A stretch of 47,904 nt of DNA from NCBI GenBank assembly GCA_964016885.1, contig CAXHJY010000791.1:1-47904 (forward strand), written 5' to 3'. This DNA comes from Eledone cirrhosa. Its lineage: Eukaryota. Under the pieces are notes generated by a model. That model saw nothing but the letters and a program-made list of their open reading frames with translations, did not search any database and was not told the origin of the DNA. How positions within the stretch are numbered: position 1 is the first letter of the stretch; each line of letters opens with the position of its first letter. Positions 4,756 to 44,539 of the stretch are shown here, piece by piece. The position numbers and the translations under genes were made by a program.

Positions 4756-4808
4756 ATTTTATTATACATATTTCGGATGTACAACAGTACGTCCTCATCA
4801 GACAAAAT
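4756..4808 (-). ncRNA. Minimal type I hammerhead ribozyme within a PLE-like cassette (~4616-4865)
   Basis: Minus strand: ATTTTGT-CTGATGA-GGACGTAC/TGTT/GTACATCC-GAAA-TATGTA-TA-ATAAAAT; stems I and II pair, the core is intact and the NUH triplet is ATA. Confidence 0.8.
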
Positions 4809-8257: not shown

Positions 8258-8440
8258 GGTAATTCCGAATAAAAAGCACAAGAAAAAAGAGTGTTCTATG
8301 CATAGAACAGAGCTATTTAACATATCTGTCTGATGAACGATCCAGACGTATGTTATTATTGTCTGAGATCCAGAAACCTTTGGTAATGGTGTAGTAATAT
8401 ATTGTGTTGTTCACTCTCTAATTAAATAGCTCTGTTCTAT
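8258..8440 (+). mobile_element. PLE-like cassette with 19-bp inverted repeats enclosing a hammerhead-like core
   Basis: ATAGAACAGAGCTATTTAA (8302-8320) and its reverse complement (8422-8440); CTGATGA at 8330, imperfect stem II, GAAA-CC-TTT-GG-TA at 8373-8385. Confidence 0.6.
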
Positions 8441-13554: not shown

Positions 13555-13596
13555 GGAGTCATAGCGTTTCGGACACTAGTCCTTCATCAGAAGATA
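13555..13596 (-). ncRNA. Hammerhead ribozyme core (family C), cleavage site mutated
   Basis: Minus strand TCTT-CTGATGA-AGGAC/TAGT/GTCC-GAAA-CGCT-ATGA; homologous to 39565-39600. Confidence 0.6.
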
Positions 13597-13715: not shown

Positions 13716-14109
13716 TATTAGAAATGTAAGCTATCGCCGTATTTTGACTAAAGAAATTAAAGAAATTATTTAGCCTGATAGTGGGGTTAAGAACCCTCGG
13801 AAAAATGGAAAAAGATGAGTATTGACGTACATGGGAGTCGAACCTACATCTTTGGTTATCCGGACCACTGTGCTACCATTTACACCAACACATGATGTGT
13901 TGGTGTAAATGGTAGCACAGTGGTCCGGATAACCAAAGATGTAGGTTCGACTCCCATGTACGTCAATACTCATCTTTTTCCATTTTTCCGAGGGTTCTTA
14001 ACCCCACTATCAGGATAAATAATTTCTTTAATTTCTTTAGTCAAAATACGGCGATAGCTTACATTTCTAATAATTTCAAACCCACTCGCTGTTTCGAAAA
14101 TATTCTTAC

Positions 14110-14110
<1 letters not shown>
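13716..14110 (+). mobile_element. tRNA-headed element inserted as a 357-bp palindrome (13716-14072) plus a short tail ending at (TA)n
   Basis: 178-bp arms around the single base G13894, one mismatch seen; the tail TTTCGAAAATATTCTTACT recurs inverted at ~44267-44285. Confidence 0.85.
13894..13965 (+). pseudogene. tRNA-like sequence (Gln-like D arm, non-canonical anticodon loop); mirror copy at 13823-13894 on the minus strand
   Basis: Folds as GATGTGT/TG/GTGTAAATGGTAGCAC/A/GTGGT-CCGGATA-ACCAA/AGAT/GTAGG-TTCGACT-CCCAT/GTACGTC-A; A box, B box GGTTCGACTCC and TTTTT at 13975-13979. Confidence 0.7.
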
Positions 14111-14140
<30 letters not shown>

Positions 14141-14153
14141 ATATATACATATA

Positions 14154-14186
<33 letters not shown>

Positions 14187-14432
14187 AGATTCAGCGAGAA
14201 TCGCATTTCGACGGGCAGGAAAAAGCGAAGCGAAACGCAAAAATCAGAAATGATACTGGCAAAGTGCTCAATAGTTAAAAACCAGAGCTAAACAATGTGT
14301 TAAGAAGCCATATAAAACTGAAAAGGTGGTCAAGAAAGCATTAACCACCCAAGCCAAATACCAAATCAAGCTAAACAGGTCAAAACAAAATAAATGATAA
14401 AAGATAAATGATAACCATGTGCATACATACAT

Positions 14433-14505
<73 letters not shown>

Positions 14506-14507
<2 letters not shown>

Positions 14508-14774
14508 CAAATGGAAACTATATTTATAAAACCATATTTATTTCATTATACATATTTCAAAAGCCACCAGAGAAAACTATGGTGCGCTTTCATCAGATAG
14601 TTTGCTCTGGTGGGCCTTGAAATATGTATAATGAAATAAATATGGTTTTATAAATATAGTTTAGTTTCCATTTGTTAATATATTGTATATTTACTCCAAT
14701 AATCTGTTGAGTGCTTTATATCAGTTATAAAAAATATTTTGCTTGTTGTATCCCAACAAATTAAATATAACCTC

Positions 14775-32530: not shown

Positions 32531-32649
32531 CTTCAGTGACCACACTGAAGCTTCTCTGACTGGCGAGGGTTGTAGAGAATGCTAGAGTTAATGAAGCGAA
32601 CTATACTATGGTATAGCGTAGTGTAGTGTATTGTAGTGAAGTGGTTAAT

Positions 32650-32710
<61 letters not shown>

Positions 32711-32734
32711 CGATGGTGGTAGTAGTAGTAGTTA

Positions 32735-34330
32735 TTACCGCTGTTTAAACCCAGAGGTGTAGAGTTCGATTTCATAAAATCTCGATATATTCCGTGTTAA
32801 CTGAAAAATATTAAATAAAATCCACACTGTGTGTTTGTTGTTGTTGCTGTAGTTATTGTTGTTACTGCTGCTACTGTTGTTGATATTGTTGTTACTGTTG
32901 CTGCAGCTGTTGTTGTTATTTTGAAGGAAGCTCTGCAGTTTAAAACCAAAAGGTACAGAGTTCGATTTCATAAAGCTACGCTATATTCCTTTAATGTTAA
33001 ATGGTCAATAAAATAAAGTACCAGTAATACACTGGTTAATTGCTGGCCTTGTGACAAAAGTAGAAACAATTTTCAAATGGTAAATGAAATCCACATTATC
33101 TACATTTTACTGTTGTGTTTGTGTTGCTGTTGTTGTAGTTATTGTTACTGTTACTGCTGCTGTTGCTTTTGATGTTATTGCAGTTGTTGCTGTTGTTGTT
33201 ATAATTTAGACAGCAGCTCCGTGGTCTAAACCCAGAGGTACAGAGTTCGATTTCACAAAACCTCGCTATATTCCATTAATAGTAAATGTTAAATCAAATC
33301 CACACTGTGTTTGTTGTTGCTGTTGTTGTTGTTACTGTTGTTGTTGTTACTGTTGTTGTTGCTGCTGTTGTTGCTGCTGCTGTTGTTGCTGTTACTGCTG
33401 CAGCTGTTGATGGTGCTATTATTTACACAAGAAACTCCACCGTTTAAACCCAGAGGTACAGAGTTCGATTCCACAAAACCCCGCTACATTCCGTTAACTG
33501 TAAATGGTAGATTATAAAATCTACAATGTGCTTGCTACTGCTGCTGTGTTGTTATTTTAGTTACTGTTGTTGCTGCTGTTGCTGTTGTTGTTGCTGCTAC
33601 TGCTGCTGTTGTCGTTGCTGCTGTTGTCGTTGCTGTTTTGAAGTTATTACTACTGACGTTGTTGCTGCTGCTGCTGTTTGCAGCGGCTTACTGTTAATTG
33701 CTGCTGCTGTTGTTGTTACTGTTAATTGCTGCTGCTGCTGTTGTTACTGTTAATTGCTGCTGTTGCTGTTGTTACTGTTATGGCTGCTGTTGTTGCTGTT
33801 TTGAAGTTATTACTACTGACGTTGTTGCTGCTGCTGCTGTTTGCAGCGCCTTACTGTTAATTGCTGCTGCTGTTGTTGTTATGTTAATTGCTGCTGCTGT
33901 TGTTGTTACTGTTAATTGCTGCTGCTGTTGTTGTTACTGTTAATTGCTGCTGCTGTTGTTGTTACTGTTAATTGCTGCTGCTGTTGTTGTTACTGTTAAT
34001 TGCTGCTGTTGCTGTTGTTACTGTTATGGCTGCTGTTGTTGTTGTTGCTGCTGTTGTGCTGTTTTGAAGTTATTACTAGGCGTTTGCAGCGCCTTACTGT
34101 TAATTGCTGCTGCTGTTGTTACTGTTATGGCTGTTGTTGTTGTTGTTGTTGTTGCTGCTGATGTTGTTGTTGCTGTTGCTATTGTTGTTGGTGCTCCTGT
34201 TGATGTTACTGTTGTTGTTATTGTTGCTGTAGATGTTGTTGTTGTTATTGTTGTTGTTGCAGTAGTTTTTGTTGTTGTTGTTGTTGTTGTTAACTGCTGC
34301 TGCTTCTGTTGATGTTATTGTTGTTGTTAA

Positions 34331-34362
<32 letters not shown>

Positions 34363-34764
34363 ATTGTTGCTGTTGTTGTCATTGTTATTGCTGGTGCTAA
34401 GGACGAGGCCCATTCGTTAAACCCGGAGGTGGCAGGTATATATTTTACAAAGTCCGCAATATTCCATTAAATCATAACATTTTAAATAAATCTCACATAG
34501 AGCTTGCTGCTGTTGTTATTGTTGTTGTTGCTGTTGTTATTGTTGTTGTTGCTGTAATTGTTGTTGTTGTTGTTGTTGTTGTTGCTGCTGTACTTGTTGT
34601 TGTTGTTGCTGTAGTTGTTGCTATTGTTGTTGTTGTTGTACAGGGTAAGGTTCTGTAGTTATACTCTACAAAGTCCGCAATATTCCATTAAATCATAACA
34701 TTTTAAATAAATCTCACATAGAGCTTGCTGCTGTTGTTATTGTTGTTGCTGCTGCTGCTGCTGC

Positions 34765-34830
<66 letters not shown>

Positions 34831-35260
34831 ACAGGGTAAGGTTCTGTAGTTATACTCTACAAAGTCCGCAATATTCCATTAAATCATAACATTTTAAATA
34901 AATCTCACATAGAGCTTGCTGCTGTTGTTATTGTTGTTGCTGCTGTTGTTGTTGCTGTTGTACTTGTTTTTGTTGTTGTTGCTGTAGTTGTTGCTATTGT
35001 TGTTGTTGTACAGAGTAAGGTTCTGTAGTTATACTCTACCCGGAGTAACAACCTTGTTTCAACACAACCATGTATTTCGTTAACATTGAACTTGCTACTG
35101 TTGTTGTTGCTGTAGTTGTTGCTATTGTTGTTGTTGTTGTTGTTATTGTTGTTGTTGTTGTTGTTGTGACTGTAGTTGTTATTGTTGTTATTGAAGTATC
35201 ATGTAAAGTTCTGACCATATACCCCGGGATACCCAGTCTCATTTCAATACACACTGATAT
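32735..35260 (+). repeat. Complex satellite: ~80-bp SINE-like core alternating with (GTT/GCT)n
   Basis: TAAACCCAGAGGTACAGAGTTCGATT...ATATTCC..TAA cores near 32745, 32940, 33225, 33443 and 34415, with variants at 34640, 34830 and 35010. Confidence 0.8.
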
Positions 35261-35304
35261 ATTTTGTTAGACTGTTTTTACTTTAGGGAAATAAACAGTG
35301 TATT

Positions 35305-36640
35305 TTTTGTTGTTATTGTTGTGGTGTTATTGTTGGTGTTGTTATTGTTGTTATGGTGTTATTGTTGGTGTTGTTATTGTTATTGTTGTGGTGGTGCTAT
35401 TGTTGGTGTTGTTATTGCTGTTGTGGTGTTATTGTTGGTGTTGTTGTTGGTGTTGTTGGTGTTGTGGTGGTGTTATTGTTGGTGTTGTTATTGCTGTTGT
35501 GGTGTTGTTGGTGTTGTTATTGTTGTTGTGGTGTTATTGTTGTTGTGGTGTTATTGTTGTTGTGGTGTTATTGTTATGGTGTTATTGTTGGTGTTGTTAT
35601 TGTTGTTGTGGTGTTATTGTTGTTGTAGTGTTATTGTTGTTGTGTTGTTATTGTTGTTGGTGTTGTTATTGTTGTTGTTCTTATTGTTGTTGTGTTGGTG
35701 TTGTTAGTGTTGTTGTTGTTGGTGTTATGGTTGTTATTGGTGTTGTAACTGTTATTACTCTTGTTTCTGTTATTGCTGTTACTGTTGTTGTTGCTCTAGT
35801 GACTGTTAAGTTTGTTGTTACTGTTGTTGTGACTGTTGTTGTTGTAGTTATTACTGTGGTTGTTGTTACTGTTGTTGTGACTGTTGTGCTGTTATCCTGT
35901 TGCTGCTGTTGTGACTGTTGTTACTTCAGCTGTTGCTGCAGTTGTTGTTGTAACTGTTGCTGCAGTTGTTGTTGTGACTGTTGCTGCAGTTGTTGTTGTG
36001 ACTGTTGCGCTGCTATCCTGTTGCTGCTGTTGTAACTGTTGCTGCAGTTGTTGTTGTGACTGTTGTGACTGTTGCTGCAGTTGTTGTTGTGACTGTTGTG
36101 CTGCTATCCTGTTGCTGCTGTTGTTACTGTCGTTACTTCAGCTGTTGCTGCAGTTGTTGTTGTGGCTGTTGCTGCAGTTGTTGTTGTGACTGTTGTGCTG
36201 CTATCATGTTGCTGCTGTTGTGACTGTTGTTACTTCAGTTGTTGTTGTAAATATTGTTGCTACTGTTGTTGTTGTGACTGTTACTGCTGCTCCTATTGCT
36301 GCAGTTGTTGAGGGAGTATATAGTTACTATTTCTAGAGTCTCCCGTTACTTCTACCTATCGATTACATTGATTGATTGAGTGTTAAATATTTTCTTTTTG
36401 GTCTGTTTTGTTGTTGTTGTTGTTGTTGTAATAGTAGTCGTAGATGTTGTTGTAGTGCTGGTAGTAGTAGTAGAGTTTGTAGTAGTAGTAGTAGTAATAG
36501 TAGTAGTAGTAGTGGTAGTCGTAGTAGTGGTAGTGGTGGTAGTAGTAGTGGTAGTGGTGGTAGTAGTAGTGGTAGTAGTAGTGGTGGTGGTGGTGGTGGT
36601 GATGGTGGTGGTAGTAGTAGTAGTAGTAGTGGTGGTGGTG

Positions 36641-36694
<54 letters not shown>

Positions 36695-36780
36695 ATATTA
36701 GTAGTAGTAGTAGTACTAGTGGTAGTAGTAGTAATAGAGTTAATAGTAGCGGTAGTAGTGGTGGTGTATGTGTGGTTGTT
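35305..36780. repeat. (GTT)n/(GCT)n/(GTA)n/(GTG)n trinucleotide field
   Basis: Direct reading. Confidence 0.95.
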
Positions 36781-36827
36781 TGATGTGTATGTGTATGATG
36801 ATGTGTATATGTATATGTGGTTATTAG

Positions 36828-36969
<142 letters not shown>

Positions 36970-37011
36970 ATGAGTAGTTGTATGTGAAAATATGTTATTA
37001 AATATATTTCG

Positions 37012-37485
37012 TGTATGTGGAAAAGTATGTGTGTGCATGTATATATGTAGGTGTGCAACTGTGTGTGTGTGTATGTGGAAAAGTGTGTGTGCATGTATAT
37101 ATGTAGGTGTGCAACTGTGTGTGTATGTGGAAAAGTGTGTGTGCATGCATATATGTAGGTGTGCAACTGTGTGTGTATGTGGAAAAGTGTGTGTGCATGC
37201 ATATATGTAGGTGTGCAACTGTGTGTATGTGGAAAAGTGTGTGTGCATGCATATATGTAGGTGTGCAACTGTGTGTATGTGGAAAAGTGTGTGTGCATGC
37301 ATATATGTAGGTGTGCAACTGTGTGTATGTGGAAAAGTGTGTGTGCATGCATATATGTAGGTGTGCAACTGTGTGTGTATGTGGAAAAGTGTGTGTGCAT
37401 GCATATATGTAGGTGTGCAACTGTGTGTGTATGTGGAAAAGTGTGTGTGCATGCATATATGTAGGTGTGCAACTGTGTGGAAATG
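37012..37485. repeat. 50-56 bp minisatellite, ~9 copies
   Basis: Unit GTATGTGGAAAAGTGTGTGTGCATGCATATATGTAGGTGTGCAACTGTGT(GT). Confidence 0.95.
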
Positions 37486-37608
37486 TGTGTGTGTATTATA
37501 TAAGAGTCCCAATCTGTATGTGTTTATAAATTCGGTGGTGCATGTGTGTGTGTGCGTGCAAGTGTGTGTGTGTGTGCAAGTGTGTGTGTGTGTGCATGTG
37601 TGTGTATG

Positions 37609-37686
<78 letters not shown>

Positions 37687-37959
37687 TGTGTGTGTGTGTG
37701 CAAGTTTGTGTATGCAAGTGTGTGTGTGCAAATATGTGTGTGCAAATGTATGTGTGTGCAAGTGTGTGAGCAATGTGTGTGTGCAAGAAAGACACATAGA
37801 TAGATAGATAGATAGATAATCCCACTGCCACATCCACACATATACACTGATACACACAGACACACACACACACACACACATAACATGTACACTTTTCTAC
37901 TCATAGATACAAACACATACACATGACATGACGAACACACGAACACATGCAGGGACGAT

Positions 37960-37999
<40 letters not shown>

Positions 38000-38227
38000 C
38001 GATCATAGACCCAATACGAACACTACTACTAGTATTACTGCTGCTGCTACTACTGCTGCTACTACTACCACTACTACTACCATCACCACCACTACTACCA
38101 CCACTACTACTACTACAACCACCACAACCACCACCACTACTACCAACAGCGCCACCACTACTACTACTACTACCACCACCACCACCACTACTACTACTTA
38201 TGTTTGTAGATATACATGCACGTATGC

Positions 38228-38296
<69 letters not shown>

Positions 38297-38422
38297 TGGG
38301 TGTATATATATATATATGTACTTCCACATACATAAACTCGCCTATATGTGTAGGCGTGTGTCTATGTATTTGATACACACACACACACACACACAGACAC
38401 ACACACACACACACACACACAC

Positions 38423-38473
<51 letters not shown>

Positions 38474-38612
38474 TTTTATTAAGGCTAAATAGTGAGCCTT
38501 GTTATGTTACTCTGGAGAGCACTAACACACAATCATCAGTATTGAACCTTAATAAAATGAATATTAATACTCTATTACGGTATTGAGTACTCCTTTTTCT
38601 CAGCCATCAACC

Positions 38613-44213: not shown

Positions 44214-44266
<53 letters not shown>

Positions 44267-44539
44267 AGTAAGAATATTTTCGAAATATATATATTTATAT
44301 GCATACACACACGCACGCGTTCGGATATATATATATATATATACACAAACACACTCAGGGAAGAAGAGAAGTGAGAGCATTCTTATGTATTGGATTCAAA
44401 CTAAACCACGAGTAACCAGGTAATTCTTAGGAAGTGATTTCTTGAACAAATACAAAAGAATTATTTAGACCAACAATAAATACACAACAGATTTATATTT
44501 ATATTTCTTCTTACGATTTTTTTTAGTTTAAACAAATAA

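Follow-up and report, generated by a model that had tools for sequence, protein, structure and literature searches.

Penelope-like elements (PLEs) and the non-autonomous Chlamys elements (MRC1) share a characteristic insertion anatomy, set out in the available text of PMC8557442: 5' truncation, partial tandems, an adjacent inverted copy, a one-sided tail (30–40 bp in PLEs) and insertion at TA targets. The origin of the inverted arms and tails is listed there as an open question. The same traits recur in a short repeat family of Eledone cirrhosa described here, which also resembles Naiad and Chlamys, as portrayed in that text, in having no hammerheads. Non-autonomous Chlamys elements generally share 3' similarity with their autonomous family, whereas the Eledone unit has no open reading frame, has yielded no such similarity in a comparison with 50 GIY-YIG loci and contains a tRNA-like head.

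Other short passengers come close in different respects. The Schistosoma elements Sm-alpha and Sj-alpha are, like this family, non-coding and tandem-dependent, single copies losing propagation; like its head, they are tRNA-related, with a link to tRNA-Gln (PMC2770079, in part), and they are apparently transcribed by RNA polymerase III (Pol III; available portion of PMC6765202), as is likely here. They carry a hammerhead ribozyme, whereas the Eledone unit has no hammerhead core on either strand; PLE tails and inverted arms, both present in Eledone, are not described for Sm-alpha in the available portions of these two papers. Animal non-LTR retrozymes likewise consist of short non-coding tandem units and are proposed, in the accessible part of bioRxiv 10.64898/2026.07.22.740005, to be non-autonomous PLE derivatives using a rolling circle (PMC8969392, in part, is a further source for comparison). 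Each retrozyme unit has a type I hammerhead and is related to pLTRs, in contrast to the Eledone unit, which has a tRNA-like domain and in which no pLTR similarity was found; the words ‘tRNA’ and ‘polymerase III’ are absent from that preprint. The TRIMp3 elements (Cassandra, Helenus, Ajax) are also non-autonomous, bear a 5S- or tRNA-derived Pol III promoter in a repeated end and are often unlike their helper in sequence (PMC10886601, in part), but they use an LTR mechanism with PBS, PPT and integrase, whereas the ends seen here are of PLE type. Short non-autonomous Penelope elements are mentioned, in the available text of PMC6685494, with no tRNA link. Finally, tRNA-derived SINEs are similarly short, non-coding and high in copy number, and their decayed cloverleaf likewise contains A and B boxes; the Eledone family differs in its tandem unit, internal 3' end, lack of poly-A and mostly inverted pairs. 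Its unit is short, non-coding and tandem, as in retrozymes and Sm-alpha. Having no hammerhead, it is not a retrozyme, and with no poly-A and an internal 3' end it is not a canonical SINE. A literature search, outside which lay Repbase/Dfam, supplements (e.g. the PMC8557442 consensus file) and most subscription papers, turned up no PLE passenger that bears a tRNA and lacks a hammerhead.

The window, meaning the whole 47,904-nt stretch of E. cirrhosa contig CAXHJY010000791.1, holds one copy of this abundant short non-coding family as a 357-bp palindrome. An earlier note on this DNA had described it as a candidate Pol III SINE folded exactly at the first base of a tRNA-like head, proposed to have formed by snap-back of a cDNA and to be mobilised by a PLE-type mechanism. 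In the numbering used below, q1 is window position 13894, the first cloverleaf base, and negative numbers lie upstream in the tandem unit (−4 is q268). The features of the locus are as follows.

13716 to 13893, minus strand: inverted tail-less arm, unit q2–q179 read leftwards; its outer end is the second fixed end of the family.
13894 to 14110, plus strand: tailed arm, q1–q217 of the 271-bp unit, subfamily A.
13894 to 13965, plus strand: tRNA-like head, a class I cloverleaf with loop GGA (Rfam, 36.9 bits; ARAGORN).
13823 to 13894, minus strand: mirror tRNA-like head within the inverted arm (Rfam, 29.7 bits).
13949 to 13967, plus strand: 3' side of the T arm and acceptor stem (q56–74), the commonest zone of 5' ends and folds in the family, likely a site of reverse transcriptase (RT) arrest.
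13975 to 13979, plus strand: T5, a putative terminator for Pol III; in a long stem predicted to form with the spacer, it is the 5' strand.
14073 to 14110, plus strand: 38-nt tail, on one arm only; its 3' end is the fixed end of the family (q216–220).
14110 to 14185, strand not applicable: (TA)n/(TG)n target tract.
44266 to 44285, minus strand: 20-bp 5'-truncated tail fragment (q199–218) between TA runs.

Much of the earlier description of the locus stands. The arms are 178 bp long, as claimed (13716–13893 and 13895–14072), and differ by a single mismatch (13773/14015) around the central G13894. The proposed cloverleaf starting at that base coincides with the Rfam tRNA match on the plus strand, and the A box (13901–13912), B box (13944–13954) and T5 described with it can be read in the sequence. 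The end of the longer arm, said to recur in inverted orientation, does so: its terminal 19–20 bp are found again at 44266–44285 (E=1.9e-4 in a within-window search). This fragment is likely an independent abortive insertion; a comparable 26-nt copy lies at locus L083. The longer arm was also said to end at (TA)n with neither poly-A nor a TSD. The (TA)n end and the absence of poly-A are borne out, whereas the absence of a TSD is undefinable inside TA runs. Two claims require correction. The fold point carries a 1-nt ambiguity (+1|+2 or −1|+3) rather than lying exactly at +1, and the tRNA is not the start of the repeat, the genomic unit holding 54 bp more that are missing from this copy, which retains 217 bp of 271. 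A second T5 at 13983–13987 is private to it. No empty-site allele for the locus is present in the assembly, where both flanks are other repeats and the locus has no second copy. Rfam miRNA matches in the window fall under gathering scores and reflect the perfect hairpin.

Several other repeats occur in the window. A young repeat of ~232 bp at 14186–14420 (1,974 first-look candidates, 96–97% identity), with one end fixed at a TA run and the other variable, is likely the end of a further PLE-type family. Hammerhead-core motifs (CTGANGA...GAAA) are found in short repeats near TA runs at 13555–13590, 14545–14596, 4765–4801, 17939 and 2354 on the minus strand and at 8330, 28166 and 38846 on the plus strand; none is at the Rfam gathering score, and these repeats are likely truncated PLE ends. 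Positions 14505–14690 form an inverted pair of their own that contains such a repeat. Two further inverted repeats are dispersed (27476–27685/46982–47191, 89%; 5103–5291/16156–16344, 93%). A long low-complexity (TGT/GCT)n region at 32600–36800, with minus-strand open frames of up to ~500 codons at 36352–38501, may be a mucin-like exon or only satellite.

The family to which the palindrome belongs is young and well-defined. Its arm gives 1,938 first-look candidates in the 3.0-Gb genome. There are two sister subfamilies. Subfamily A, with 1,290 exact matches to a 25-mer at its 3' end, has a 271-bp unit arranged head to tail, comprising the 217 bp seen in the window and a 54-bp spacer; in subfamily B the unit measures 260 bp, with 1,284 exact matches. 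The two are ~96% identical over q1–92, ~70% over q93–212 and 80% in the spacer. Partial tandems are seamless, with 145 exact spacer-to-head junctions, and range from dimers up to ~10 units. Tandem units inside one copy share variants at 0.0155/bp versus 0.0020, which is compatible with a circular intermediate or an end-to-end jump and also with a homogeneous source array. A coding origin was rejected: a short open frame of A is, as judged by eye, not kept in B. At L166 (G000:C4:61009600-61012400), an array of ~10 units with a 272-bp period has mosaic variants, suggesting later expansion at the DNA level, and an AAT run at its tail-less end. A and B copies adjoin in the same TA tract at L243, L254 and L084. 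At G000:C2:314537456-314622822, ~10 exact spacer-to-head junctions recur at ~7.1-kb spacing within a larger tandem repeat that carries the unit, possibly a source locus or partner. At L003 (element-strand positions ~1240–1290), the unit is joined at the B box to another kind of tRNA-like head, a fusion suggestive of template switching from one small RNA to another.

Insertion anatomy was tabulated for the first 90 loci with 3'-motif matches listed on contig 1; removal of 2 duplicates and 6 loci with an internal motif only left 82, and four further regions lie outside the sample. In 78/82 copies the 3' end is fixed at q216–220, and 5' truncation is variable. The 3' end is followed by TA in 68 copies, CA in 4 and other sequence in 10; TA occurs within 8 nt of it in 68/82, against a background of 7–17%. 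Poly-A is found in 0/82 copies. A second, inverted arm is present in 61/82 (74%). The outer end of the tail-less arm falls mostly at q178–183 (spread, q158–183) and meets TA in 48/51 cases; the tail between the modal ends measures 33–42 nt. Of 51 folds, 38 pair one tailed with one tail-less arm, 12 have no detected tail and 1 has both. The unit continues past the insertion end, its more 3' sequence being present in seamless tandems. PLE-type insertion, first suggested from the window alone, is thus seen at family level: a fixed 3' end joined to (TA)n, truncation on the 5' side, partial tandems and a tail-less arm in inverted orientation match point by point the anatomy in the available text of PMC8557442, which supports PLE-type mobilisation. 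We therefore regard it as very probable that the family is mobilised by a PLE, and as likely that it is a hitch-hiker on PLEs without their usual self-cutting ribozyme.

Candidate helpers are at hand. Autonomous PLEs encoding RT and GIY-YIG domains are abundant in the E. cirrhosa genome and have inverted arms, one-sided tails (36 nt in L189, ~60 in L180 and L182) and TA flanks, as in the family. Two autonomous PLE fragments, L184:2260-5525 (3.3 kb, 99.7%) and L176:489-4237 (3.7 kb, 97%), form palindromes that are almost perfect, a large-scale version of the one in the window. A sensitive blastn comparison of the unit with GIY-YIG loci gave no sequence match in a small sample of 50 of 10,596 first-look candidates, all with a C-terminal EN; the N-terminal EN order occurs in none of the PLE loci examined. 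Against ~0.94 Mb of genome sequence with the family masked, only AT-rich chance matches were obtained.

The head has the appearance of a decayed tRNA. Both window heads score just above the Rfam tRNA gathering score of 29, and ARAGORN calls Ser(GGA) with a low score, non-standard pairs and no long variable arm. Serine tRNAs need a long variable arm, and a functional tRNA gene is rejected for these three reasons. Both subfamilies have intact A and B boxes. The T5 at q82–86, conserved in A and B, is the sole T run of at least 4 on the plus strand of the unit. It is the main difficulty for Pol III, which, judging from the sequence, it should stop early; a polymerase starting from either window head would meet a T5 after ~85 nt. 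The hammerhead core CTGANGA is on neither strand of A or B, where only antisense one-mismatch look-alikes and no Rfam match were found; the pattern works as a control, detecting several cores in other repeats of the window. The look-alikes near q174–212 are not kept in subfamily B and were discarded as a hammerhead relic. A predicted stem pairs q75–92 with q254–271 and is kept in B through U-G pairs, and in another predicted stem, close to the tail-less end, C-G is replaced by U-A, one compensatory pair representing one A/B split (25 A and 4 B rows). The fold of the whole unit is not unusual (z −0.9 plus, −1.3 minus).

The 5' ends of the copies follow landmarks of this RNA. They are nonrandom, as had been anticipated, but not fixed at +1: the commonest lie at q56–74, accounting for 29/82 tailed arms (5.1 expected, p=5.5e-15, 4.3 per 100 nt). 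The claimed enrichment at the tRNA start is confirmed, with 8 ends of tailed arms observed at q267–6 against 0.9 expected, or 5.6 per 100 nt. Other first-unit stretches have 0.14–0.63 per 100 nt, except for the last bin (1.35), which includes the T arm of the second unit. The q56–74 peak recurs in 30/51 tail-less arms and 5/21 non-inverted copies. Palindromic 4-mers lie at q62–67, with a 3–4-nt overlap in 8/25 inverted loci; because the wider peak is also found in tail-less and non-inverted copies, they account for only part of it. We infer that RT is arrested where the T arm and acceptor stem are folded, perhaps with help from tRNA-type modification. Closer to the start, 39 of 100 heads examined (of 507 exact matches) end at −6 to +5 by script, 33 once 6 are set aside by eye as variant spacers or an internal deletion; about two thirds of the 100 run on upstream through the junction. 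Folds at most 12 nt from +1 occur at 73 loci genome-wide. The window's own junction type is present at 7 other loci among the 50 matches listed; with the window included it makes up 8 of 51 near-+1 folds, and +1 is accordingly not a rule. Among the subfamily A arm ends of these folds (n=56, 50 matches listed plus the window), 12 fall at −4, 4 at −3, 6 at −2, 9 at −1, 7 at +1, 17 at +2, 1 at −7 and none at −5 or −6, setting an upstream limit at −4; in subfamily B, ends called at −5 and −6 cannot be told apart from the other arm's ATG. Position −4 is a pyrimidine-purine step (C|G), and this wall may well be a Pol III start. It also stands at the foot of the predicted closing stem, and RT stalling there could look like a start site. 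Trimming or RNase P may account for the second pile, at −1 to +2.

How the inverted arm forms can be judged from the relative reach of the two arms. In 39 clean single-unit joins, the longer 5' reach, by more than 8 nt, belongs to the tail-less arm in 15 and to the tailed arm in 6, the other 18 being symmetric; over all 61 inverted loci the corresponding numbers are 24, 13 and 24. Snap-back, in which a single cDNA reaches the 5' end of the RNA and folds on itself, an endonuclease then resolving the hairpin and removing the tail of one arm, gains from the symmetric joins, from 4-nt palindromic overlaps in 9/61 loci, from two variants common to both window arms that occur in 0/42 other loci, and from the suggestion, in the available text of PMC8557442, that the tail arises by EN-mediated resolution. 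A fold-back cDNA can only make an equal or shorter second arm and offers no route to a tail-less arm holding sequence absent from the tailed one. The 15/39 longer tail-less arms therefore need two separately primed antisense cDNAs, at least often, and the snap-back originally invoked fails as a family-wide account. Shared singletons are also found in asymmetric loci (4 in 1,804 bp versus 9 in 2,132 bp). The arms of one locus share variants at 0.0107/bp versus 0.0012 between loci, about nine times more, so both arms come from one source; gene conversion could also have produced this sharing. We judge snap-back improbable as the general route, and twin priming, with two cDNAs primed on opposite strands and joined head to head, probable. 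Twin priming agrees, by analogy, with an Anolis PLE in vitro, which in the available text of PMC11167929 cleaves and extends both strands, starts reverse transcription at two internal sites bounding the tail and needs RNA 3' of the start. Snap-back may apply to the symmetric subset, window copy included; being symmetric, this copy fits both routes and cannot by itself decide between them.

The nature of the template admits a further alternative, in which the family is PLE-mobilised but copied from a long read-through or circular RNA, the ends at −4 and +1 arising from RT arrest at the stem that closes the upstream unit or RNase P cleavage at +1, and the tRNA serving as a processing signal rather than a promoter. 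Such a template sidesteps the T5 problem and suits the heads that run upstream through the junction, the apparently bimodal ends, the position of the q75–92/q254–271 stem (ending at −1, with its strong part at −6), the variant sharing among tandem units and the clear stalling of RT at structure at q56–74. Yet the −4 ends lie beyond what RNase P alone would give, other predicted hairpins yield just ~0.6 ends per 100 nt, and intact A and B boxes occur in both subfamilies; we find this template doubtful. A related, tentative proposal is a ribozyme-free PLE parasite whose tRNA mimic does the job of the hammerhead, as Pol III promoter and as an RNase P site cutting tandem transcripts to unit length, with the resulting RNAs either circularised or copied by a PLE RT that jumps from end to end. 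An ordinary tRNA SINE mobilised by an RTE-, CR1- or L2-type LINE, with L1-style 5' inversions, would account for the head with its A and B boxes and for a 3' end abutting a simple repeat. It is very improbable given the absence of poly-A, an inverted arm that is a second copy of the sense arm, with a fixed end of its own, the sequence 3' of the insertion end in seamless tandems, and the inversion rate; nor is the unit an ordinary 5'-headed SINE-like build, as had been supposed, since it is a tandem repeat with 54 bp more. That the palindrome is an assembly artefact or a DNA-level foldback (MITE-like or replication slippage) is prompted by its position on a 48-kb unplaced contig and by a fold spanned by no read or contig among the sequencing data compared. 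At the family level the artefact is ruled out by inverted arms at 61/82 independent chromosomal loci with varied joints, and by the many head-to-head joints of the family in raw RAD reads and in independent contigs built from short reads; in X23, for instance, 6 reads with 3 starts contain the q62 joint. Four runs supplied these data, from two studies and no more than three samples, and X1 and X2 may represent the assembly's own sample. Arm divergence (0.029/bp) and 5' ends tied to RNA-level landmarks also count against this explanation, which we hold to be highly unlikely.

Taken as a whole, the data are quite probably best explained if a tandem repeat that is non-coding and bears a tRNA-like head was inserted head to head after being copied in trans, likely by a PLE and likely from a Pol III transcript starting at −4. 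In the proposed sequence of events, a tandem source copy would be transcribed from its A and B boxes, and the T5 would be read through part of the time, yielding RNA that includes the spacer; the spacer would then be the RNA downstream (3') of the RT start. The PLE protein would nick both strands of a TA run and prime two cDNAs, at q216–220 and ~q163–183. Each cDNA would run toward the 5' end of the RNA and usually stall at the folded T arm and acceptor of the tRNA, those that do not stall reaching −4 or passing into the upstream unit. Joining of the two cDNA 3' ends would involve microhomology, a short filler or the trimming of 0–5 nt. To give the near-perfect hairpin of the window copy, both cDNAs would have reached the RNA start, and this copy, having no spacer, would be a dead end. 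A purely linear model would shrink the tandems at each cycle, and a circle or template jump thus seems to be needed.

Passengers derived from small RNAs are known for LINEs (SINEs) and LTR elements (TRIMp3), and the present family likely extends them to ribozyme-free PLEs. A 271-bp passenger with thousands of young copies permits direct counts on how PLE inverted arms and tails form; the asymmetric joins favour twin priming in vivo, and the unit is small enough for the existing in vitro PLE assay. Its copies are also prone to mis-annotation as tRNA genes or miRNA hairpins. If the tentative proposal of a ribozyme-free PLE parasite with a tRNA mimic is true, this class would be the PLE counterpart of TRIMp3, and the thousands of copies would document in vivo that PLE inverted repeats arise from two separately primed cDNAs.
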